NCBI GenBank assembly: GCA_006844605.1
Contig: SPJN01000001.1
Location: 74,024-138,023 of the forward strand
DNA from: Hyphomicrobiales bacterium
GTDB lineage: Bacteria; Pseudomonadota; Alphaproteobacteria; SPJN01
Reading direction: 5' to 3'
Length of the DNA stretch: 64,000 nucleotides
Shown here one piece after another: positions 33,102 through 48,675 of the stretch; position 1 is the stretch's first letter; every line of letters starts with the position of its first letter. The position numbers and the translations under genes were made by a program. Under the pieces are notes generated by a model. It was not told the origin of the DNA. It saw nothing but the letters and a program-made list of their open reading frames with translations, and ran no database searches.

Positions 33102-34208
33102 ATGATGAACAAATCAATCGACGAGCAAGTCACCAGCGGCGCGGCATGGGCGCAATTCTGCGATGACCTGAAGGCGGTGGGTGACTTGCTGCTACAACCG
33201 GAAAATCCGCAGGATGCGTTTACGCAAGCCGAAGGGATGCGGTATCTGTCCCGCCTGACGCGGATGGGGCTTGAAAACTTTTTGGAATATCGCGACCCGC
33301 TGTTCCCGGTGTTTCGTCGTTCCTGTCATGAAACGATCAAGCTGGGTGGTGATAACCCGGACAATCATTATGCCAATGCGCAGATTGACGGATCGTTTGA
33401 CTACAAGATCACAGGGTCGCGCGGGTCTGTTCACTATTTGGGGATCGGAACCCAATCCGGCAATTACGGCAAGGACGGGACGTTGCAAACCATCGGCTTT
33501 ATCGATGCCGATAAGGATATTGCGATTAATGATGATGGCAGTTTTGAAATCATCGTGTCGCAAACAGAACAGCCGGGCAATTGGCTGAAGATGACAGACG
33601 GTACGGGCATGGTGCTGGTGCGCCAAACCTTTCATGATCGCGAAACAGAAACCCCTGCTGTGCTGACGATTGAACGGCTAAATGCAGAGGGTGAGGCCCC
33701 TGCACCCCTGTCGTCGCAACGTATCGCGCATGGGTTGATGGCGGCCAGCCGCTACGTGGCAGGCTCCGTCAAGTTGTTCTTGGAATGGAGCCATGAGTTC
33801 CGCACCTATGACCTCAACACGTTCAAAATGCTGGATCATAAACGCGCCCAGCGTGTCGGGGGCGATCCCAATATACGCTATTTTTATGGGTGGTATGATT
33901 TCGCAGATGATGAGGCATTGGTGATCACCACACCGCTGCCTGAATGTGATTACTGGAATATCCAATTGTGCAATTTTTGGATGGAAAGTTTTGATTATCG
34001 CTATCACCGGGTTCATCTGAACCACCACCTTGCGCAAAATGACGGCAAGACGGCTGAGGTTGTGGTGGCGCACAGGCAGCTGGATCACCCCAACGCCATC
34101 GAAACGGCAGGCCATAAGGAAGGCGTGTTGATGTGGCGCTGGATCGGCGCATCTGATCACCCTGTCCCGCAAGTGCGCAAGGTGAAGATAAGCGAGATTG
34201 CAGGATGA
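33102..34208 (+). CDS. conserved hypothetical protein, translationally coupled to sulfotransferase
   Basis: A 368-aa soluble protein with no recognisable catalytic motif by eye. Its stop overlaps the next start (ATGA at 34205-34208). Confidence 0.55.
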   Translation: MMNKSIDEQVTSGAAWAQFCDDLKAVGDLLLQPENPQDAFTQAEGMRYLSRLTRMGLENFLEYRDPLFPVFRRSCHETIKLGGDNPDNHYANAQIDGSFDYKITGSRGSVHYLGIGTQSGNYGKDGTLQTIGFIDADKDIAINDDGSFEIIVSQTEQPGNWLKMTDGTGMVLVRQTFHDRETETPAVLTIERLNAEGEAPAPLSSQRIAHGLMAASRYVAGSVKLFLEWSHEFRTYDLNTFKMLDHKRAQRVGGDPNIRYFYGWYDFADDEALVITTPLPECDYWNIQLCNFWMESFDYRYHRVHLNHHLAQNDGKTAEVVVAHRQLDHPNAIETAGHKEGVLMWRWIGASDHPVPQVRKVKISEIAG

Positions 34209-35383
34209 GCCGCATTCCCCTGGAACGTGATGCCCTGATGGCGGCGGCGGTGCAATCTGCCGGGCTGGACGATTTCGGCGATTTGTTTTTTATAGAGCCG
34301 TTGGATGTTTTGTTAAGCGCCCTCACAACCGAAGCTGATCTGAACGATGCGGCCCTGAAAGTGCGGCCCATGCAGTTGGTCAACAGTTTGGTCAATCGCC
34401 TGCGGACAGAGGATTACATCAAACGCCATCCGGAAATTTTGGATGAAGAAATTTTGGTCGATGCGGTAATTGTTGGTTTGCCGCGCACAGGCAGCACAAT
34501 GCTGCATCGCCTGTTGGCAGCTGATCCGGGCAATACCGCGATGCAGATGTGGGAAGGGGGGCAACCTGCGCCTTGGCCTGAAGAGGACTTGGGTACAGCA
34601 AAAGAGCTGGGGAATCCCATCGGCCGCCAGAAAATGGGCGAGAAGACCGCCGCCTATATTAATCAATCCAGCCCCGGCTTTGGTTCGATCCATGATGTGA
34701 ATGCCTATAGTCCAGAAGAAGAAATCCTGCTGCTGGAACATTGTTTCATGAGCTCAGTCCCTGAATCCGGTTTCTATATCCCCAGCTATACGGATTATCT
34801 AAAGGGCGCTGATCATTCGCGCGCCTATCAGGATTTGAAACGCTTTCTGCAATTCTTGCAATGGCAGCGCCCCGAACGGCGTGGCAAAAAATGGGTGCTG
34901 AAAACACCGCAGCATGTCCCGTTGGTTGATGTTGTGCTGAAGACGTTTCCCGGGGCCAAGATTGTCATGACCCATCGTGATCCGGTTGAAACCGTGCCCA
35001 GCTTTTGTTCGATGGTCGCGCATTATGCAGGGCCGTGGACCAATCACCTTGATGAAAAGGCGATCGGCAAATTGTGGGCCGATCGCTTGGCGTGGAACCT
35101 TGACCAGTTTATGCAGCAGCGTGATGCGCTGGGTGAGGCGCACTTTATCGATACTGACTACCGCAAGACCATCACTGATCCGCTTGGGGTGGCGCGTGAT
35201 CTGTACGCGCAGTTGGGCCGCACCGTCACCGCATCGGGTGCGGCGCAGATGAAAGAACATGCAGCGGCCAACAAGAAAAACAAACATGGCAAGCATCACT
35301 ATACCGCAGCGCAATTCGGGTTAAGTGACAGTGGCATTGCAGACCAGTTCGCTGCCTATCGTGGCCGATATATCAAAGGGTAA
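34205..35383 (+). CDS. PAPS-dependent sulfotransferase family protein
   Basis: 5'-PSB loop LPRTGSTMLHRLL and a downstream 3'-PB-like region. About 390 aa and cytoplasmic. Confidence 0.7.
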   Translation: MSRIPLERDALMAAAVQSAGLDDFGDLFFIEPLDVLLSALTTEADLNDAALKVRPMQLVNSLVNRLRTEDYIKRHPEILDEEILVDAVIVGLPRTGSTMLHRLLAADPGNTAMQMWEGGQPAPWPEEDLGTAKELGNPIGRQKMGEKTAAYINQSSPGFGSIHDVNAYSPEEEILLLEHCFMSSVPESGFYIPSYTDYLKGADHSRAYQDLKRFLQFLQWQRPERRGKKWVLKTPQHVPLVDVVLKTFPGAKIVMTHRDPVETVPSFCSMVAHYAGPWTNHLDEKAIGKLWADRLAWNLDQFMQQRDALGEAHFIDTDYRKTITDPLGVARDLYAQLGRTVTASGAAQMKEHAAANKKNKHGKHHYTAAQFGLSDSGIADQFAAYRGRYIKG

Positions 35384-37884: not shown

Positions 37885-38030
37885 GACGTGCCTTCTTTTC
37901 CTGATTCATCTTGCAATTCTACGCAAACCACATAGAATATCGAGCAATAATTTGCCAAATGCGTAAAAAACTATCGTAATTATAACGCATATGGATGGTT
38001 TGGCCTGATTCTTCAGGCAGGGAGGAATAT

Positions 38031-39614
38031 GTGACCGAAACCGGGAAACCTGCGGGTCCGGCGCTTTTGCGCAAGACCATGCCGCAAATGTTGCGGCAGG
38101 CGGCGGCAACTTGGCCTGATCATATCGCAATTTTGGAAGATGGTGAAAGCCTGACCTATCAGGACTTGCTTGCGCAGGCGTCTGAGGTGGCTGCCGGCTT
38201 TGTCAGCGCGGGGCTGGATAAGGGTGACAGGTTTGCAATCTGGGCACCCAATTGCCGTGAATGGATTGTGACCGCGTTGGGTGGTTTGATGGCCGGGTGT
38301 GTGCTTATCCCGATCAATACGCGTTTCAAGGGGAGCGAGGCTGCCGATATTCTGGGCCGTGGCGGGGTGAAGGCCCTGTTCACGGTGAAGGGTTTTTTGG
38401 GGGCCGACTATCCCGCCATGTTGGATGGGTATGACCTGCCCACACTTGATTTAACGGTGCTGTTGCGCGGCGACAACGGGGCCAGTTGGGCCGGCTTTAT
38501 TGACAGTGTAATCGATGAAGATCGCGTCCGCGCCCATGAGCGTGAGGCCGCGCTGCGCCCAGAAGACGTGGCTGATATCTTGTTCACGTCGGGCACGACA
38601 GGCCAGCCCAAGGGGGCAATGACGGCGCATGGACAAAATGTGGCTGTGTTTGATGAATGGGCCAGTCTGATCAGCCTGCATGATCAGGATCGCTATTTGA
38701 TCGTCAATCCATTCTTTCACAGCTTCGGCTATAAGGCAGGCTGGTTTGCCTGCCTGTTAAAGGGGGCAACAGCCTTGCCCCATGCGGTGTTTGATGTGGA
38801 TCAGATATTGGATCGTATCGCCGCTGACAAGGTTACGGTGTTGCCGGGGCCGCCAACCATTTTCCAAAGCCTGATAAATCACGCCGGGTTGGCGGGGGCC
38901 GATATCAGCAGCCTGCGTGCCACGGTGACGGGCGCGGCGTCCATCCCTGTGCATTTGGTTGAACAGATGAAGCAGGTGCTGGGCTTTGACATTGTGTTAA
39001 CCGCCTACGGCCTGACTGAGGCGACGGGCACTGTCACCATGTGTCGACCCGAAGATGATTTTGAAACCATTGCCAACACGTCTGGCCGCGCCATTCCGTT
39101 TGTGGAGGTGAAATGCGTGGACGGGCAGGGCAATGCCGTGCCCGCGGATGAGGCAGGGGAAGTGCTGATCCGTGGTTATAATGTGATGCAGGGCTATCTT
39201 GATAATCAGGCCGCCACAGATGACGCGATCACAGATGATGGTTGGTTGAGGACCGGTGACATCGGCATTCTGGACGCGCACGGTTATTTGCGTATCACTG
39301 ACCGGGCGAAGGACATGTTCATTACCGGTGGGTTTAATTGTTATCCGGCTGAAATTGAAAACACATTATTGCGGCATGACGCTGTGGCTGACGCTGCGGT
39401 TATCAGCGCGCCTGACGACAGAATGGGTGAAGTTGCCCATGCCTTTATCGTGTTGAAGGCAGGGCAGGTGTTAGAGGCCAATGAGTTGATTGGCTGGGCA
39501 CGTCATGAGATGGCGAATTATAAAGTGCCGCGACTTGTCAGTTTTGTGGACGAGTTGCCGCGCAACGCTTCAGGAAAAGTACAGAAATTCAAATTACGGG
39601 ATTTGGCTGCATGA
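38031..39614 (+). CDS. AMP-dependent acyl-CoA synthetase/ligase (class I adenylate-forming)
   Basis: AMP-binding motifs FTSGTTGQPKG and YGLTE, and TGDIG with a C-terminal GKVQK. GTG at 38031 has a GGAGG 7 nt upstream. The stop overlaps the next start. Confidence 0.8.
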   Translation: MTETGKPAGPALLRKTMPQMLRQAAATWPDHIAILEDGESLTYQDLLAQASEVAAGFVSAGLDKGDRFAIWAPNCREWIVTALGGLMAGCVLIPINTRFKGSEAADILGRGGVKALFTVKGFLGADYPAMLDGYDLPTLDLTVLLRGDNGASWAGFIDSVIDEDRVRAHEREAALRPEDVADILFTSGTTGQPKGAMTAHGQNVAVFDEWASLISLHDQDRYLIVNPFFHSFGYKAGWFACLLKGATALPHAVFDVDQILDRIAADKVTVLPGPPTIFQSLINHAGLAGADISSLRATVTGAASIPVHLVEQMKQVLGFDIVLTAYGLTEATGTVTMCRPEDDFETIANTSGRAIPFVEVKCVDGQGNAVPADEAGEVLIRGYNVMQGYLDNQAATDDAITDDGWLRTGDIGILDAHGYLRITDRAKDMFITGGFNCYPAEIENTLLRHDAVADAAVISAPDDRMGEVAHAFIVLKAGQVLEANELIGWARHEMANYKVPRLVSFVDELPRNASGKVQKFKLRDLAA

Positions 39615-41410
39615 CAATATCACGCGAAGAAACGCAGGAAAAAATCAACCGCCAGATTTTTGGCGCGAGCAAGAACAAGCCCAGTCAAGCACATTGTGTG
39701 GCTGATCGTTATGAACAATGGGCAACCGAACGGCCCGATGTGCCCGCCGTACTTTATCAGGACCGGGTGTTAAGTTACGCGGACCTTGACGCGGCTGCCA
39801 ATCAGTTGGCTGTTGTGCTGCATAACAAGGGTGTGGAACGCGGTGATGTGGTGGCGTTCGGTATGGAGAACCGCCCAGAGTTTTATGTTGGGGTTTTGGC
39901 GCTGGCCAAATTGGGTGCTGTTGGGTCCCTGATCAATATTCAGCAGGTTGGCGATCGGCTGGTTTATTCGGTTGAAAAAGTAACGCCAAAACTTGTTCTG
40001 TTTGGCTCTGAATGTATTGCAAGTTTACAGGCCGCGTGGCCAACACCGACCGCGCCCGTATTGGTCTGGCAGGACCCTGAATCGCCACAAGATGCGGGCA
40101 GCTATGCCGAGGATATTACCGATGTTATCGCCGCAGCCGACCCGGGGGGCTATGACAAGTCATGGCGTGATGGATTGGTGGCGGGTGACATGTTCGTCTA
40201 TGTCTTCACGTCAGGCACGACAGGCTTCCCCAAGGCGGCAAAGCTGTCCCATGTGCGTTGGTTGAATACCGGCGATGGGATGAGCGCGCTTTTGGAATTT
40301 CGTCCAGATGACGTGTTCTATTGCACCTTGCCGCTTTACCATTCGGCGGGGCTGATGTCGTTAACGTCGATGTGTTTGGCGGTGGGCGGCACGATGGCGA
40401 TGCGGCGCAAATTCTCTGTCTCGCAATTCTGGGACGATATCCGCAAACATAACGTAACCGTGACGCAATATATTGGCGAGATGTGCCGTTATCTGATGGC
40501 ACAGCCGGAACAGGCTGATGATGCAGACAATCCGCTGCGCGCCATGATCGGTAGTTCCATCGGGATGGATATCTGGGCCGCGTTTAAGGAACGCTTTGCA
40601 GTTGACCAGATTTTTGAAGGGTGGGGGGCAACAGAAGCCAATACCGGCATGACCAATGTTGACGAAAAAATCGGTGCTGTTGGCCGTGTGCCCTTCAAGG
40701 AGATGAGCAATATTCGCCTCGTCCGTTTTGATGTCGAAGCGGACGATCACATCCGTGATGAAAATGGCTTCTTGATTGAGTGTGAGCCTGATCAGCCCGG
40801 TGAGGTTGTGGCACGTATCTTGGCGCTGCCCGATAGTGCTGCTGGACGGTTCGAAGGCTACACGGATGCGGAGGCGACTGAGGCAAAAATCCTGCGCAAT
40901 GTGTTTGAGGAAGGCGATGCCTATTTCCGTTCAGGTGATTTGATGAAGCGGGATGCGGATGATTATTTCTATTTCCTTGATCGCATCGGCGATACGTTCC
41001 GGTGGAAGTCGGAAAATGTGTCCACGATGGAAGTGGCAGAAGAATTGTCGGGCTTTGACGGTATTGCCTTTTGCAACTGTTATGGTGTGCGTGTGCCGGG
41101 CACCGAAGGGCGCGCGGGTATGGTGGCGCTGGGCCTGAAAGACGGGGCAAGTTTTGATGCTGTGGGCTTCTACAAATTTGCCAAGGAGCGTCTGGCCCAT
41201 TACGCCGTGCCGCTGTTTGTCCGCATTGCCGAGGAATTGGACATGACCTCCACGCTCAAGATGCGCAAAGTGGATTTTCAGCGGCAGGGGTATGACCCTG
41301 CGGCGATGGATGATCCGCTTTATGTGATTGATGATGCGGCAGGGGCTTATGTACCGCTGAATGATCAGGCGCTATCAAATGCAGGCTTGGCACCGTTTGA
41401 CGGGGACTGA
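39611..41410 (+). CDS. FATP/very-long-chain acyl-CoA synthetase-like ligase (bile-acid-CoA-ligase-related subfamily)
   Basis: FVYVFTSGTTGFPKAAKLSHVRW and YRSGDLMKRD are FATP/FadD6-like signatures. 599 aa. Confidence 0.75.
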   Translation: MTISREETQEKINRQIFGASKNKPSQAHCVADRYEQWATERPDVPAVLYQDRVLSYADLDAAANQLAVVLHNKGVERGDVVAFGMENRPEFYVGVLALAKLGAVGSLINIQQVGDRLVYSVEKVTPKLVLFGSECIASLQAAWPTPTAPVLVWQDPESPQDAGSYAEDITDVIAAADPGGYDKSWRDGLVAGDMFVYVFTSGTTGFPKAAKLSHVRWLNTGDGMSALLEFRPDDVFYCTLPLYHSAGLMSLTSMCLAVGGTMAMRRKFSVSQFWDDIRKHNVTVTQYIGEMCRYLMAQPEQADDADNPLRAMIGSSIGMDIWAAFKERFAVDQIFEGWGATEANTGMTNVDEKIGAVGRVPFKEMSNIRLVRFDVEADDHIRDENGFLIECEPDQPGEVVARILALPDSAAGRFEGYTDAEATEAKILRNVFEEGDAYFRSGDLMKRDADDYFYFLDRIGDTFRWKSENVSTMEVAEELSGFDGIAFCNCYGVRVPGTEGRAGMVALGLKDGASFDAVGFYKFAKERLAHYAVPLFVRIAEELDMTSTLKMRKVDFQRQGYDPAAMDDPLYVIDDAAGAYVPLNDQALSNAGLAPFDGD

Positions 41411-41443
41411 CCCTATCTGGCCACAAATGAATTCACACAAAGA

Positions 41444-41476
41444 AAAAGGCCGGTCGCAAGACCGGCCTTTCTAATT
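41444..41476. terminator. bidirectional rho-independent terminator (GGCCGGTC-gcaa-GACCGGCC flanked by A- and T-runs)
   Basis: Seen directly between convergent genes. Confidence 0.65.
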
Positions 41477-41494
41477 CTGTATGTCGGTTAGGTC

Positions 41495-42826
41495 TTAAAG
41501 ACCCAGACCGATCAGACCCAAAATGGTGTCGGGGCCGAAGCCTGCGCCACCACCGCTGGGTGACAGACCTTTAAGGTTGATCAGCATTGTGGTCGGGTCA
41601 GTGTTGCCACCAACGGCTTCCAGAATGGTGATCTCTGTCAGGCCTGATGCATCGCTAAGCGGTGCCAATAACGGCAGGCCAATTTCCAACAGGGCGTCGG
41701 AACCGGCTGCGCCGGGCTGACCGGAAACCCCAATGGCAACCAGTGATTCCAGATCAGGAATGCCTGAAGGGGCACCTGACGGTGCGCTACCTGCATCAAG
41801 GTTCAGCAATGCTGTGGCAGGATCAGTGTTGCCGTTAATCGCTTCCAGAACAGAAATGTTGACATTCTCGCCACCGTCAAACACCTGCAGGGCAGACGCC
41901 TGTACGATATTGTTCTTGGAACCACCAGCGGGGTCGTTACCAATCACAACATCGGCAAGTGAGCTTTGGTTGGCTGCAGATGCCGGATCACTTGAAAGAC
42001 CGGTCAGGCCCTGACCAACAGCAACCGCAATAACGGAACCATTGTCGCCAGAGGCACCACCGAAGCTCAAGCTACCATTTTGATCTGATGTGGCGTCGTC
42101 AGCTGCTGAGCTGGCCAAATCACCATCAAGGCCGTCTGCTGAACCATCATCATTAACGTCATCGCTGGCAATTGCATCGCCTGATGCGCTGGGATCGTCC
42201 AAGCTATCGTCACCGTCGCCGTCACCGGCTGCTGCAACATCGTCGCCTGAATCAGCGCCGTCTGTTGTGTCGTCACTGGCATCACCGAACAGATCATCGC
42301 CTGCATCGGTGTCGGTGCCGCCTGTTGTGTCGTCAGCGAACAGATCGTCGAACTCATCTGCGTCGTCAGCTTCTGCTGCCTCATCGGCGGCATCACCGGC
42401 GTCGGCCATGTCGTCGGCAACGTCATCATCGGCTGCATCTTCTGCAACCTGATCATCACCCGCGGCGTCATCACCGGTTTCGGCTGTTTCTTCTTCGTCA
42501 CCGAAAAGGTCTTCATCATCGGCGAACAAGTCTTCTTCTTCGTCTGATTCTTCAGCGAACAAGTCTTCTTCTTCGTCGGCACTTTCATCGTCGGTCATGA
42601 AGTCGGCGAAAAGATCATCTTCATCTTCCGCATCTTCGGTTTTACATTCGTCAGGAATATCCTGTTCCAGAAAACCAAGTGCTGCGGCGTCTTTATATTC
42701 GGCGCACTTGTCTTCTTGTGCTGCCATATCTTCCTGCGCGTCAACGAAGGAAGGGGCACCAATTGACAAGATGCCTGCGAATGCGATGGCGCTGATGCCA
42801 CCCAAAAGTTTGTGACGGATAGACAT
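41495..42826 (-). CDS. secreted polyacidic repeat protein (hypothetical)
   Basis: Signal peptide, about 250 aa of D/E-rich low complexity with repeated (E/D)DLF(A/G)D units, then a C-terminal Gly/Ser-rich region with two ~25-aa repeats (LEA(I/V)NGNTDP.T.L.NL). Confidence 0.6.
   Translation of the reverse strand: MSIRHKLLGGISAIAFAGILSIGAPSFVDAQEDMAAQEDKCAEYKDAAALGFLEQDIPDECKTEDAEDEDDLFADFMTDDESADEEEDLFAEESDEEEDLFADDEDLFGDEEETAETGDDAAGDDQVAEDAADDDVADDMADAGDAADEAAEADDADEFDDLFADDTTGGTDTDAGDDLFGDASDDTTDGADSGDDVAAAGDGDGDDSLDDPSASGDAIASDDVNDDGSADGLDGDLASSAADDATSDQNGSLSFGGASGDNGSVIAVAVGQGLTGLSSDPASAANQSSLADVVIGNDPAGGSKNNIVQASALQVFDGGENVNISVLEAINGNTDPATALLNLDAGSAPSGAPSGIPDLESLVAIGVSGQPGAAGSDALLEIGLPLLAPLSDASGLTEITILEAVGGNTDPTTMLINLKGLSPSGGGAGFGPDTILGLIGLGL
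42490..42600. repeat. intragenic 33-bp tandem repeats (GCGAACAAGTCTTCTTCTTCGTC at 42522 and 42555) encoding EEEDLFA units
   Basis: A 23-bp perfect direct repeat with 33-bp period, seen directly. Confidence 0.6.
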
Positions 42827-43054
42827 GATAACTCCACTTAATACGCGTAAACCCGCTGAGTGAGACGGATATTAAACCATTCTACTAATTGTGCTAGCCC
42901 CCAAAGCTACTGAATCGGCGTTATAGGCAATGTGGCGTTGCAAACATGTCCCATATTGGTCGGGATTACTAACAGACCGTTAATTCGGCCTTGATTTGCA
43001 GCGCCGGGTGCTATTCATTGTGCGTGAGGATGATTGTTTCAGAAGGAAATTCCT

Positions 43055-44437
43055 ATGCGTATTGCGTCTAAAGCGTCCTTTTCTAGGAAATTGATGGCTT
43101 CGACCGCACTGGTTGGTGCGTTAACCATTGGCATCATTGGGGGTGCCACGACTGCTCAAGCTGACGAAATGATGTCAGCGCAGGAGCGTGCTTCGCTTGA
43201 AGCGTCGCTAGAGCAGCAGCGTCTTGCCGCCCTTGCACAGCCCAGCAACATGCAAATTCAATTTGAACGTGCAATGACAGCCAAAAAATTGGGATACACG
43301 GATGAAGCGATCCGCGTTCTGTCAATGATGGTTGATCAGCAGCCCGGCCTTGCCCGTGCAGAGCTGGAATTGGCTGCTTTATACTACCAGTCAGGTGATT
43401 ACGAAAAAGCTAAGCCCCATTTTGAGGCTGCCGCCGCATCACCTAAAGCATCTGTTGAGCTTAAAGAGCGTATCGCTGTTTATCTTGAATCAATCGACAA
43501 CAAGCTGCGCCGGTCATTGACCACAGGCACATTGGTTGTCGGTGTGGGCTTCCAGACCAACGCCAATGGCGGTTCTGACGATTTCGCCAATACGGCCAAT
43601 ATCTCAGAAGTGGCTGAAGCTGACGACTTTAATCTGTTCGCGTCATTGGGCGTCAATCACAATCGTAAGGTTGGCGAATCAGACCGTACGGTTTGGGAAA
43701 ACAGCGGGAACCTGTATGGCTCCTTGCAGCTTGACGTTGATGAATTGAATCTGATGTATGCTGAAGTGTCATCAGGCCTGAAATTCGGTCTTGCTAATGA
43801 CAATCCCATGTCATTGAACATCAAGCCCTATGTGAAGCTTGGCTACCTGTTCCTTGAAGACACAACCTACCTGACGTCACCGTCAGCAGGTGCAGTCATG
43901 AACATGCAGCTTGGCGACAATATGGTTCTGGGCGTTGGTTACGACTTTACGCTTGAGATGTACAATAACAGCGACACGCGTACACGCGCCGAAGATCGTG
44001 ATGGCGATGACCATATGCTGACAGTCAGCCTGGGTATTGCTGCAACACAGCAGGATGTTTTGTCCTTCCAGCTGGATGCGGGCAAGAAATCAGCAGACAG
44101 GGATGAATGGTCATTTGATTCATTGGGCCTGTCAGCACGTTACTCACATAGCTTCGCTGAAGCCATCGTGCCGGGCACACTTGCCGGTACGTTAAGCCTT
44201 GGCGCGTCATATTACATGTCTGAATATGATGCCGCTGACCAAAATCTTACCGCAGTGGGTCTGGGCACGATTGTTCGTGAAGATGATCGTTTCGTTGTTG
44301 ACGCCGGTGCCGTGTTGCCGCTGTCAGACACAATGGGCATTTCAGTGGGCGCAAGCTACACCATGCAGGACTCAAACGTGTCCTTGTATGAATATGACAA
44401 TCTGCGTGTCTTGGCCGGGGTTGCATTCGCACTCTAA
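43055..44437 (+). CDS. outer-membrane protein with N-terminal TPR-like helical domain and C-terminal beta-barrel (DUF560/Slam-like, putative)
   Basis: Signal peptide, a helical TPR-like segment (AELELAALYYQSGDYEKAKPHFEAA), then about 300 aa of alternating amphipathic beta-strand pattern ending ...LAGVAFAL. An AGAAGGA RBS precedes the ATG at 43055. Confidence 0.5.
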   Translation: MRIASKASFSRKLMASTALVGALTIGIIGGATTAQADEMMSAQERASLEASLEQQRLAALAQPSNMQIQFERAMTAKKLGYTDEAIRVLSMMVDQQPGLARAELELAALYYQSGDYEKAKPHFEAAAASPKASVELKERIAVYLESIDNKLRRSLTTGTLVVGVGFQTNANGGSDDFANTANISEVAEADDFNLFASLGVNHNRKVGESDRTVWENSGNLYGSLQLDVDELNLMYAEVSSGLKFGLANDNPMSLNIKPYVKLGYLFLEDTTYLTSPSAGAVMNMQLGDNMVLGVGYDFTLEMYNNSDTRTRAEDRDGDDHMLTVSLGIAATQQDVLSFQLDAGKKSADRDEWSFDSLGLSARYSHSFAEAIVPGTLAGTLSLGASYYMSEYDAADQNLTAVGLGTIVREDDRFVVDAGAVLPLSDTMGISVGASYTMQDSNVSLYEYDNLRVLAGVAFAL

Positions 44438-44460
44438 GCTTTCACACAGCAGAACAAATA

Positions 44461-44495
44461 AAACCCCGGATCGGCTGATCCGGGGTTTTTCTTTT
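44461..44495. terminator. bidirectional rho-independent terminator (CCCCGGATC-ggct-GATCCGGGG + TTTTTCTTTTG)
   Basis: Seen directly between convergent genes. Confidence 0.7.
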
Positions 44496-44556
44496 GTCTG
44501 GTTCTTGTCTGCCCGGGCATGGCGCTGGGCCACACCCGGATAGTGAGGAGTTCGGC

Positions 44557-46059
44557 TTACTTCATTGTCGGAATGACAAAGCTGGCGCCATCGCGTGCTG
44601 AATGATCAGGCCAACGGGCCGTCACGGTCTTGACCTTGGTCCAGAATTTCACGCCCTCTGTCCCGTGTTGGTTGGTGTCGCCGAAGGCTGACCGTTTCCA
44701 CCCACCAAAGGAATGATAGGCAAGCGGTACCGGGATCGGCACATTGATGCCAACCATGCCAACATTCACCTTGGCGGCAAACGTGCGGGCCGCATCGCCA
44801 TCGCGAGTAAAGATCGCAACGCCGTTGCCATATTGATGGCGTGATGGCAGGGCAACGGCTTCTTCAAAATCATTGGCGCGCATGATTGACAGAACCGGGC
44901 CAAAAATCTCTTCCTTATAGATCGTCATGTCGGGTGTGACGTGATCGAACAGGCAACCGCCCATAAAGAAACCGTCTTCATGGCCTTGCAGTTTGAAGTC
45001 ACGGCCATCGACCAGCAGCTTTGCGCCTTCCTTGATGCCGATATCAACATAGTTCTTGATCTTGGCAAGGTGGGCTGCGGTCACGACCGGGCCAAAATCG
45101 GCATCCGGGTCGGTGGCTGTGCCAACGCGCAGGGCTTCAACGCGGGGGATCAGCTTTTCTACCAAGGCGTCAGCGGTTTCATCACCAACCGTTACGACCT
45201 GACTGATCGCCATGCAGCGTTCCCCGGCAGAGCCAAAGCCCGCACCGATCAGTGCGTCAGATACTTGGTCAAGATCGGCGTCAGGCATGATGATCGCGTG
45301 GTTCTTTGCGCCGCCCATTGCCTGCACACGCTTGCCGTTGGCCGCGCCGGTTGCATAGATGTATTCAGCGATGTCCGAGCTGCCGACAAAGCTGACCGCT
45401 TCAACCCGCGGATCGGTTAGAATTGTATCAACGGCTTCCTTGTCACCAACCACGATATTCAGCACGCCTTCGGGGGCGCCGGCTTCCAACATCAATTCGC
45501 CAAGGCGCAAGGGTAGTGATGGGTCACGTTCTGACGGTTTGCAAACAAATGTGTTGCCGCACGCTATGGCAACACCGAACATCCACATAGGGATCATGGC
45601 GGGGAAGTTGAACGGTGTGATGCCGGCGCAAACACCAAGGGGTTGGCGCATGGAATACATGTCGATGCCGGGGCCTGCACCTTCGGTGAACTCACCTTTT
45701 TGCAGGTGGGGGATACCGCAGGCAAATTCGATCACTTCGATGCCGCGTTGAATGTCGCCCTTTGAATCAGCGACGACCTTGCCATGTTCGCGTGACAGCA
45801 TTTCGGCCAGCGAGTCCATCTCGCGCTCGACCAATTCCTTGAACTTGAACATCACCCGCGCCCGTTTTTGCGGGTTGGTGGCGGCCCATTCAGGGAAGGC
45901 GGCCTGCGCAGCGGCGATGGCGTCCTGCACTTCTTCGGTTGCGGCAAGCGGTGCCTTGGCCTGCACTTCCCCGGTTGAGGGGTCATAGACGTCGTGGAAC
46001 CGGCCAGAGCGGCCTTCGACCACTTTACCGTTGATGAAATGGGTCAATGTTTTGGTCAT
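44557..46059 (-). CDS. mmsA: CoA-acylating methylmalonate-semialdehyde dehydrogenase
   Basis: ALDH family with catalytic Cys (FGSAGERCMA) and an N-terminus MTKTLTHFINGK typical of MmsA. The ATG at 46059 has a GGGAGA RBS. Confidence 0.85.
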   Translation of the reverse strand: MTKTLTHFINGKVVEGRSGRFHDVYDPSTGEVQAKAPLAATEEVQDAIAAAQAAFPEWAATNPQKRARVMFKFKELVEREMDSLAEMLSREHGKVVADSKGDIQRGIEVIEFACGIPHLQKGEFTEGAGPGIDMYSMRQPLGVCAGITPFNFPAMIPMWMFGVAIACGNTFVCKPSERDPSLPLRLGELMLEAGAPEGVLNIVVGDKEAVDTILTDPRVEAVSFVGSSDIAEYIYATGAANGKRVQAMGGAKNHAIIMPDADLDQVSDALIGAGFGSAGERCMAISQVVTVGDETADALVEKLIPRVEALRVGTATDPDADFGPVVTAAHLAKIKNYVDIGIKEGAKLLVDGRDFKLQGHEDGFFMGGCLFDHVTPDMTIYKEEIFGPVLSIMRANDFEEAVALPSRHQYGNGVAIFTRDGDAARTFAAKVNVGMVGINVPIPVPLAYHSFGGWKRSAFGDTNQHGTEGVKFWTKVKTVTARWPDHSARDGASFVIPTMK

Positions 46060-47820: not shown

Positions 47821-48675
47821 TCAGGGTCTCAGGGCGATGTTCAAACAGCCCACCTTGTGCAGCATGGTGTCACCACTTTCAAAGATGCGATCAGCCTCTG
47901 CAAACAGGGGGGGTAGCGGTTGCCACTGCGGCGGGGCCGTTGGTTCATGCGGCCAAATAAACGCGCCTTGGGAAAAGTGGCTTGCCAATTCTTGTTGGAA
48001 GGCGGCGATATCCTCGCCCAGTCGCGTCATGCCATAGGGCCAATATTCGATCAGCATCAGGCTGGCCTGTGCCAGCACATGTTTGCCGCCGCGAAACAAT
48101 AATGGTTCCGCCCCTTGAATGTCGCTTTTGATGCATAGGGGGCGGGGCAAACTGTCTATATCGCCTAGTAATTCATCCAAGGGCGCTGTGGGCACGGTGA
48201 TCAGGTCACGGGTCGCCTCAGCCATCAGGTCGTTGCTGGCTGACGGGGTATCTTTGTGCAGGCGGTGGTCGCCGAAATTATCCGGCGCGCGTTCAAAGCT
48301 GATGGTGCCGGTTTTGTCGCTGATGGCCTGATTGATTATGGTGACGGGCGGGCAATCATTATGGGCGATGTTGCGCGTTAACAGTTCGGCATTCAGGGGA
48401 TCAGCCTCAATCGCGATCAGGTGCCTGAACAGGCCCGATTTGGCCTGCGGGATCAGCGTCAGGCCGATATTGGCCCCAATGTCGATATAGGTGCCGCCGG
48501 GGTGCTGATTGCCAAACTGCGAAAACAATGCGGTCACATCTTCGCCCCAAATAGCCTTATCCTGATAGGTGCTAAAAACCACCTTGTCGGCGGGCAGCCC
48601 TTCGATACGGCCATTGCGCCCGTCTGCAATCGCGGTATTGTGAAGCCGATTTTGGTCGGAAGGAGAAAGAGGCAC
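47821..48675 (-). CDS. FkbM-family SAM-dependent methyltransferase
   Basis: GTYIDIGANIGLTLIP SAM-binding motif typical of the FkbM family. GTG start. Confidence 0.65.
   Translation of the reverse strand: MPLSPSDQNRLHNTAIADGRNGRIEGLPADKVVFSTYQDKAIWGEDVTALFSQFGNQHPGGTYIDIGANIGLTLIPQAKSGLFRHLIAIEADPLNAELLTRNIAHNDCPPVTIINQAISDKTGTISFERAPDNFGDHRLHKDTPSASNDLMAEATRDLITVPTAPLDELLGDIDSLPRPLCIKSDIQGAEPLLFRGGKHVLAQASLMLIEYWPYGMTRLGEDIAAFQQELASHFSQGAFIWPHEPTAPPQWQPLPPLFAEADRIFESGDTMLHKVGCLNIALRP

Follow-up and report, generated by a model that had tools for sequence, protein, structure and literature searches.

The subject of this study is a pair of divergently adjacent genes in a 64,000-nucleotide stretch of DNA, hereafter the window, from a Hyphomicrobiales bacterium (contig SPJN01000001.1, positions 74,024 to 138,023). 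The first gene, on the minus strand at 41495-42826, encodes a polyacidic protein of 443 residues with a Sec-type signal peptide, and the second, on the plus strand at 43055-44437, encodes an outer-membrane protein (OMP) with a predicted periplasmic tetratricopeptide repeat (TPR) domain and a β-barrel. The two genes are paired wherever the acidic family was found, and the OMP is, by profile comparison, a remote relative of the Slam/DUF560 pores of the type 11 secretion system (T11SS). We tentatively propose, with a confidence that falls a little short of even, that the acidic protein is a new type of cargo for a divergent T11SS-like pore and that it acts as an extracellular polyanion.

Distribution and pairing of the genes

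The open reading frame (ORF) at 41495-42826 is a genuine and very rare gene. A GGAG ribosome-binding site (RBS) is located a few bases 5' of the ATG. Comparison of the window with the orthologous loci L002 and L005 gave a divergence of 0.46-0.68 at codon position 3 versus 0.20-0.31 at positions 1 and 2. Since this approximately twofold excess at position 3 extends over all three parts of the protein (N-terminal, acidic and C-terminal), the results indicate protein-coding constraint along the entire frame. The GC content of the gene (54.7%) is close to that of the window (55.2%) and gives no sign of a foreign origin.

An exhaustive HMMER (phmmer) search of 1.84 billion representative proteins with the C-terminal 194 residues as the query returned only two clusters, P0005 (67% identity) and P0006 (45%). 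A word-indexed homology search with the same query gave no match, not even to the protein itself, and no matches were obtained when metagenomes were scanned by protein pattern and by a conserved 24-nt leader. Further loci were obtained from context look-ups and a genome scan, namely L002 (with fragments L003 and L004), L005, L006 and L007; the genome scan contributed one extra locus only, and L007 is from a metagenome-assembled genome (MAG) annotated "Alphaproteobacteria bacterium". An alphaproteobacterial MAG is also on record as a source of the window's partner protein. Every copy of the acidic gene is either unnamed or labelled hypothetical in its annotation, and the window protein had no match in Pfam or NCBIfam, the family being an unannotated orphan. 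The pairing of an acidic protein with a divergent T11SS-like pore is undescribed in the literature searched.

The acidic gene was found divergently adjacent to the TPR-barrel OMP gene at five of five loci (the window, L002, L005, L006 and L007), and every member of the acidic family returned by the exhaustive search belonged to such a pair. The loci belong to two clades, between which the acidic proteins are 35-45% identical and the OMPs 38% identical. In the clade of the window the pair is bordered on one side by genes encoding an aldehyde dehydrogenase, a LysR protein and an MIP protein, and on the other side by variable genes. In the clade of L006 and L007 a glyoxalase gene is located on the OMP side, with genes for sulfur transport, a FecCD-type ABC transporter and a TonB-dependent receptor opposite. 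The pair is the only unit common to the two clades, the neighbourhoods of which are otherwise different.

The intergenic region shared by the two genes contains a conserved 23-nt motif, GTTGCAAACATGTCCCATATTGG / GTTGCAANCNTGTCCCATANTGG, at 42937-42959. It occurs once in the window, against 0.01 occurrences expected by chance, and twice each in L002 (2867-2889 and 2917-2939) and L005 (1847-1869 and 1966-1988); no exact match was present in L006 or L007. Possibly the motif is an operator or promoter element used by both genes; its location in an intergenic region serving the two makes their co-regulation likely. A scan of 41380-44560 for σ70-type promoters gave no match. The leader and first ~15 codons of the acidic gene (42774-42856) are near-invariant in DNA, synonymous sites included. 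This was the sole part of the gene aligned by blastn (89% identity over 83 nt), the orthologous proteins being 49-61% identical, which suggests that the translation initiation region is constrained or that a regulatory element, in RNA or DNA, is present.

Relationship of the partner to Slam-type pores

The start of the partner gene is ambiguous over 43034-43114, the mechanically called ORF beginning at a TTG (43034) and the NCBI entry P0001 (447 aa) beginning 20 codons further in. Alignment of the orthologues, together with a conserved RBS of its own (GAAGGAAATTCCTATG), places the start at the ATG at 43055. The protein scored 27 bits against Pfam TPR_14, above the cut-off of 23.5. With P0004, a bona fide DUF560 protein that scores 55 bits across the full PF04575 model, the partner was aligned by phmmer at an E value of 4e-4. 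Profile alignment (hhalign) of the five OMPs against P0004 and P0007 gave a probability of 99.3% and an E value of 6.8e-21 over 367 columns; the barrel by itself gave 97.1% and 7.6e-11 over 267 columns, and the TPR domain by itself 96.5% and 8e-10. These profile alignments identify the partner as a remote relative of the Slam/DUF560 T11SS pores that has the same architecture and is not a member of the family by the Pfam threshold.

Structural comparison leaves room for a second interpretation, in which the partner is a porin or a TPR-porin for exopolysaccharide similar to PgaA, BcsC or PelB, the adjacency has no meaning for export, and the acidic protein acts independently or leaves by another route. 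The top full-length Foldseek matches of the partner were BcsC (E 1.4e-14) and PelB, which share the layout of TPR domain plus barrel, and the sub-threshold SlipAM score of the partner and the small sample of loci also agree with this interpretation. However, the TM-scores to BcsC were poor (0.32-0.38), and the exopolysaccharide TPR-porins have barrels of 16-18 strands and are accompanied by synthase and modification genes, whereas the partner has 14 predicted strands and no glycosyltransferase or synthase genes were present within ~8 kb of the window pair or at L002, L005 and L006. A pair that alone is common to two clades, and an acidic family never found elsewhere, also count against a meaningless adjacency. 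This second interpretation is considered improbable.

Anatomy of the acidic protein

The order of parts in the acidic protein, a signal peptide followed by a disordered N-terminal part and a β-type C-terminal part (Table 1), is like that of a cargo protein. The signal peptide begins MSIRHKLLGG and has an n-region containing R4, H5 and K6, a hydrophobic core and a predicted cleavage site VDA|QE. M1-G10 and the A-Q-E cleavage region were invariant across three close orthologues, and the residues at -3 and -1 follow one pattern throughout the relatives (VSA|QE and VEA|QD in the distant clade). The protein has no lipobox, the first cysteine being residue 41. Cys41 and Cys61 are both kept in four members, including the window protein, L002 and P0006, and both are lost together in L005 (398-1735), a pattern that fits a disulfide pair. 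The sole weakly helical part of the AlphaFold2 (AF2) model was residues 32-61.

The segment following the second cysteine (residues 63-250, 188 aa) is composed of 33.5% D, 11.2% E, 18.6% A and 9.0% G, or 72% of these four residues, and contains 45% D+E with no K or R for a net charge of approximately -84. Counted from the cleavage site the tract has 229 residues and 69% D/E/A/G, and by either bound the acidic region comprises about 190-230 aa with 41-45% D+E. The mature protein of ~40 kDa has a net charge of approximately -107 and five basic residues. Within the tract are six motifs of the form (D/E)(D/E)LF(A/G)(D/E) starting at residues 71, 88, 99, 106, 161 and 178. The mean net charge of 0.45, compared with a charge-hydropathy boundary of -0.07, places the tract far on the disordered side, and the AF2 model shows it devoid of secondary structure with a predicted local distance difference test (pLDDT) score below 50. 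The acidic region is thus probably intrinsically disordered. Across the family the tract, measured from the cleavage site, is 197-263 aa long with a net charge of -72 to -96 and 0-3 basic residues; its sequence is poorly conserved and rich in insertions and deletions, with its character retained in all members. Acid-flanked hydrophobic-Phe motifs are present in every member (6, 5, 6, 2-3 and 2-3).

These results bear on an earlier note on this DNA, the original prediction, which described the gene as encoding a disordered, secreted protein with about 250 residues almost exclusively D, E, A and G. The reading frame was found at exactly the predicted bounds, and disorder is what the charge-hydropathy analysis indicates. 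The strongly acidic character was confirmed, the extent and purity of the tract being less than described. Secretion is supported by the Sec-type signal peptide as far as can be judged from sequence. The original prediction did not remark on the partner gene, which provides the most specific lead on function, or on the folded type of the duplicated C-terminal domain.

The C-terminal region (residues 251-419) is the best-conserved part of the acidic family. It contains ~8-9 short segments, counted by eye, with alternating hydrophobic residues separated by G/N/D/P turns. An internal duplication of ~73 aa was detected (residues 280-351 versus 353-426) with a local self-alignment score of 92 compared to 34.5 ± 6.5 in 500 shuffles (z = 8.9). 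The protein terminates with an uncharged tail rich in G, L and P that is also present in the distant clade (P0006 / L006 and L007; GLALGAGLAPVLGPLGAAIP). In L002 and L005 the tail is absent, the stop codon being followed directly by the terminator. To our knowledge the tail does not resemble the sorting signals PEP-CTERM and GlyGly-CTERM, as it has no terminal basic residues.

The alternating segments, the turns, the duplication and the conservation of this region would also be expected if the C-terminal domain were an exported, self-assembling β-solenoid, amyloid-like fibre or adhesin, with the acidic tract serving as an intramolecular solubiliser or "entropic bristle" by which it remains unfolded in the periplasm, a logic similar to that of the dedicated amyloid exporters such as FapF/FapC. 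This is judged quite unlikely on three grounds: the domain is dissimilar in sequence to the known fibre subunits, curli and Fap included; only two repeat units are present; and the charge of the tract is kept in all members, suggesting that it is more than a disposable pro-region.

Repeats in the DNA and the question of variation

The original prediction also placed 33-bp tandem repeats in the tract, with a perfect 23-bp copy at 42522 and 42555. The exact 23-mers are indeed located at 42522-42544 and 42555-42577, 33 bp apart, within an in-frame duplication the two copies of which (33-35 nt) are 83-85% identical. The duplication is real and occurs as a single pair, not as an array, containing two of the six DLF motifs. 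Tandem Repeats Finder reported only a 21-bp row of two copies (score 54) and a 6-bp row of 3.3 copies. Aspartate codons in the gene are split between GAT (40) and GAC (41), indicating that the tract is of low complexity in the protein and not in the DNA. The second, more distant repeat pair of the original prediction, given there as approximately 75% identical, was recovered at 41573-41625 and 41798-41850, ~6-9 nt from the predicted starts. The copies are 74% identical, 225 bp apart, encode LEAVGGNTDPTTMLINL and LEAINGNTDPATALLNL, and belong to the ~73-aa duplication described above.

Several long ORFs (120-173 aa) in alternative frames overlap the acidic tract on both strands at 42067-42600. 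They are by-products of the low-complexity run of GA(T/C) and GC(N) codons, are not conserved as proteins, and represent a trap for annotation.

From the repeats it had been predicted that the gene is prone to slippage, phase variation and assembly collapse, as would be the case for a contingency surface protein that varies in length or phase. The exact 23-bp copy inside the 33-bp duplication is of the kind expected, and the number of DLF units and the length of the tract do vary between species: the N-terminal DLF cluster has four units in the window, three in L002 and two in L005, results indicating that the acidic region evolves by in-frame insertions and deletions. However, slippage cannot switch the gene off, since there are only two copies and the unit is a multiple of three. 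In addition, the duplication barely scores with Tandem Repeats Finder, and mixed codon use keeps the DNA non-repetitive. The exact window protein is present on four contigs, the Logan contig L001, assembled independently, matches the window at every position over 1,892 bp (100% identity), and L002 and L003, which come from different runs, do not differ in their first 196 aa, a stretch that includes the repeat region. Thus, the number of DLF units differs between species and shows no variation within populations in the little data available, and a phase-variable or contingency gene is not supported. Collapse during assembly is implausible for a feature of 66 bp and is contradicted by the identical second assembly. 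Overall, the contingency explanation is largely refuted and retains a very small probability.

Proposed export of the acidic protein through the partner

The layout of the acidic protein, adjacent to a Slam-like pore at every locus, fits export by that pore followed by a role as an extracellular or surface polyanion. In the proposed two-gene secretion module, Sec would carry the acidic protein over the inner membrane and signal peptidase I would cut after VDA30. The mature chain of approximately -107 would be largely unfolded in the periplasm and thereby competent for translocation, and the adjacent OMP would pass it through the outer membrane. The duplicated C-terminal ~170 aa could serve as the recognition and folding domain, in the manner of the C-terminal barrel of T11SS cargo, and the LF motifs, flanked by acidic residues, are candidates for short linear motifs that dock to the TPR domain of the pore or serve as "stickers" for self-association. 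Outside the cell the polyanionic tract may act as a non-specific cation sink or form condensates, in a manner analogous to the anionic region of LbpB; the candidate ligands are Ca2+, Mg2+ or Fe3+, polyamines and cationic peptides.

Several of these steps have precedent in type 11 secretion, a system defined only recently. Substrates of Slam are translocated unfolded and are recognised through a specificity motif at the C-terminus (PMC9090332), genes adjoining Slam have repeatedly proved to encode its cargo (PMC5449769, PMC12282271), and the architectures of T11SS cargo include a long disordered N-terminus followed by a C-terminal β domain (PMC12282271). The low-complexity anionic region of LbpB, itself a Slam cargo, traps cationic peptides, and condensates are reported in M. 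bovis (PMC3896470, PMC11022072). The verified T11SS cargo proteins all have a C-terminal 8-strand barrel (PMC12282271). The more specific proposal, that the pore exports a cargo that has no canonical 8-strand barrel and is recognised by the domain of two 73-aa repeats, by TPR-bound LF motifs, or by both, is offered with considerable reserve and considered possible at best.

A number of results weigh against export as cargo. The scores of the partner were below the cut-offs for TPR_Slam (24.1 bits, E 5e-5; cut-off 35.2) and for SlipAM/DUF560 PF04575 (14.8 bits, E 0.022; cut-off 22), the latter also for its orthologues. The orthologues P0002 (26.4 bits), P0003 (27.1) and the L007 OMP (22.9) reached the cut-off of 22.9 for DUF2860, over the C-terminal half of the model only; the window OMP gave no match to this family at E ≤ 0.1. 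In the PDB copy searched, no Slam structure was found with which the fold of the partner could be compared. Electrostatic complementarity between a cargo of -107 and the pore was looked for and not found, the barrel being itself acidic (net -19 to -27) and the TPR domain near neutral. On the side of the acidic protein, the canonical C-terminal 8-strand barrel of T11SS cargo (TbpBBD or lipoprotein C) was not detected by sequence; searches of Pfam at E ≤ 10 gave no family for four members and only DUF3682 (E 2.5) for the C-terminal fragment of the window protein; and a PDB profile search with the C-terminal alignment gave only a chance match (E 0.47). The AF2 model of the acidic protein, built from a three-sequence alignment, had a pLDDT of 35 with a few short strands at residues 292-344 and was uninformative. 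The LF motifs are few (2-3) and degenerate in the distant clade, and the sample is limited to five loci, all metagenomic or derived from MAGs. Lastly, the acidic family showed no similarity by hhalign to the product of a gene at L008 2709-3701, which was considered a possible canonical cargo but for which neither Pfam nor the PDB gave a match; the gene is kept as a lead only.

The L008 gene encodes a protein of 330 aa with a signal peptide and a G/F/A-rich C-terminus that by eye is like that of a β-barrel cargo, and it adjoins the gene for a related TPR_Slam OMP, P0007. The product could be a further unrecognised type of T11SS cargo.

A serious rival to export is that the acidic protein stays in the periplasm together with the OMP, either as a cation buffer or Donnan polyanion that feeds a 14-strand channel or as a regulator or plug docking to the TPR domain through its LF motifs. 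TPR domains often bind short acidic or hydrophobic peptides, and a signal peptide of type I, lacking a lipobox, ensures delivery to the periplasm only. The undetected targeting barrel is consistent with a periplasmic resident, as are the best structural matches of the partner barrel, CymA and OmpG, both of which are substrate channels; the pairing of the genes fits any kind of partnership. Nevertheless, the homology of the partner to DUF560 secretion pores extends over both domains, a disordered chain of 40 kDa and -107 would be an unusual resident exposed to proteases, and a simple buffer would have no evident need of a conserved, duplicated C-terminal domain. Retention in the periplasm is consequently regarded as unlikely, while being the alternative to take most seriously.

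Comparison with known systems

The partner shares with the T11SS OMPs (DUF560, PF04575; Slam1/2, NilB, HrpB and TepS) a signal peptide, a periplasmic TPR domain and a 14-strand barrel, with profile-level homology over both domains, and differs in scoring below the Pfam cut-offs given above. The acidic protein is similar to T11SS cargo in its adjacency, Sec signal, variable or disordered N-terminus and conserved β-type C-terminus; unlike such cargo, it is not a lipoprotein and has no detectable TbpBBD or lipoprotein-C barrel. Moreover, the pair described here is from uncultured Alphaproteobacteria and not from host-associated Beta- or Gammaproteobacteria.

A functional parallel is LbpB (lactoferrin-binding protein B) of Neisseria and Moraxella, a Slam-dependent protein that, like the acidic protein, has a low-complexity, D/E-rich and largely disordered region. 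In LbpB this region is inserted into the C-lobe of a two-lobed, TbpB-like lipoprotein that binds a specific ligand, whereas here the tract makes up approximately half of a non-lipoprotein, is N-terminal to the sole folded-type region, and is not accompanied by TbpB-like domains or by sequence similarity to LbpB.

Among alphaproteobacterial OMPs the marine "cluster 3" T11SS proteins of Rhodobacteraceae and Roseobacteraceae are comparable in that canonical barrel cargo is seldom adjacent (Grossman et al. 2025, PMC12282271). For T11SS OMPs of marine Alphaproteobacteria, cluster 3 included, it is reported that canonical cargo is mostly absent nearby and that glyoxalase genes co-occur (PMC12282271), matching the glyoxalase neighbours of the L006 and L007 OMPs. 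The DUF1194/vWA and thymidylate synthase genes typical of cluster 3 were not seen at the loci reported here. A further relationship is to DUF2860 (PF11059; Cj0561c of Campylobacter jejuni), a poorly characterised family predicted to have 14 strands (PMC9581022), the cut-off of which is passed by orthologues of the partner; descriptions of that family mention neither a TPR domain nor an acidic protein paired with it.

The resemblance of the acidic protein to calsequestrin-type proteins, Asp-rich biomineralisation proteins and Ca2+ binders of the RTX and EF-hand types is one of composition only, namely D/E content and predicted disorder, with no homology. The window protein contains one Dx[DN]xDG motif and the L006 protein one GGxGxD motif, neither of which is conserved among members. 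By analogy with such proteins, cation binding of low affinity and high capacity is plausible.

Features of the locus and flanking genes

The features are listed in Table 1. Hairpins equivalent to that following the acidic gene are present 3' of the stop codons of the L002 and L005 genes. A scan of the whole window with Rfam revealed no RNA family.

Table 1. Features of the acidic-protein gene, the partner gene and their surroundings in the window.
Feature	Position	Strand	Basis or remark
Intrinsic-terminator-like hairpin, 13-bp stem then T run	41443..41472	-	directly 3' of the acidic-gene stop codon
Coding sequence, 443-aa polyacidic protein	41495..42826, stop codon included	-	ORF, orthologues, codon constraint, RBS
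Uncharged G/L-rich tail, residues 420-443, GLSPSGGGAGFGPDTILGLIGLGL	41498..41569	-	overlaps the end of repeat unit 2
C-terminal repeat unit 2, residues 353-426, ...SLVAIGVSGQP...ITILEAVGGNTDPTTMLINLKGLSPSG	41549..41770	-	protein self-alignment, DNA repeat
C-terminal G/S/L/N-rich β-type region, residues 251-419	41570..42076	-	folded side of charge-hydropathy plot
C-terminal repeat unit 1, residues 280-351, ...SLADVVIGNDP...ISVLEAINGNTDPATALLNLDAGSAPSG	41774..41989	-	protein self-alignment, DNA repeat
Polyacidic disorder-type region, residues 63-250	42077..42640	-	composition, motifs, charge-hydropathy, AF2
33-bp in-frame duplication, ...EEEDLFAEE / ...EEEDLFADD	42519..42586 (copies 42519-42553, 42552-42586)	-	
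Segment bracketed by Cys41 and Cys61, CAEYKDAAALGFLEQDIPDEC	42644..42706	-	possible disulfide loop
Sec-type signal peptide, residues 1-30, MSIRHKLLGGISAIAFAGILSIGAPSFVDA|QE, type I	42737..42826	-	inspection, conservation
Divergent intergenic region shared by both genes	42827..43054	.	orthologue alignment; highly conserved leaders on both sides
Partner OMP, 460 aa: signal peptide, TPR domain, 14-strand β-barrel	43055..44437	+	ATG start fixed by orthologues
Periplasmic TPR-type helical domain	43178..43507	+	AF2 residues 49-158 (TTG numbering), pLDDT ~80-88; Pfam TPR
14-strand β-barrel	43514..44431	+	AF2 model residues 161-466
Bidirectional terminator-like hairpin	44460..44489		between partner gene and convergent aldehyde dehydrogenase gene

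Directly upstream of the terminator of the acidic gene are two tandem genes for AMP-binding proteins of the acyl-CoA ligase type (37995-41410) that overlap by 4 nt (ATGA at 39611-39614). Further out are several short-chain dehydrogenase genes, a sulfotransferase gene (34205-35383) and a gene for an FkbM-type methyltransferase (47821-48675). Neither the AMP-binding pair nor these flanking genes are conserved beside the acidic/OMP pair at the other loci.

In the distant clade the glyoxalase-family gene is located beside the OMP gene, and the transport genes are within ~6 kb of the acidic gene (L006, 7506-8198 and 11400-16872; L007, 2716-3450). The transport genes comprise a sulfur-transport pair, a FecCD/Peripla_BP_2/ABC transporter and a TonB-dependent receptor. 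These neighbours point tentatively to metal uptake, a connection with no counterpart near the window copy.

Implications

If the link to secretion fails, the gene encodes a rare orphan acidic protein of the periplasm and is of modest interest. If the acidic protein is exported as proposed and recognised without the canonical barrel, it would represent a new class of T11SS cargo with a new mode of recognition and a free-living counterpart of the LbpB sink, possibly acting through condensates. The concept of a secreted polyanion as a sink for cations and peptides would then extend from host-adapted pathogens to environmental bacteria. The strictly paired genes would provide a two-gene test case for whether such divergent pores secrete proteins and, if so, what these pores recognise.

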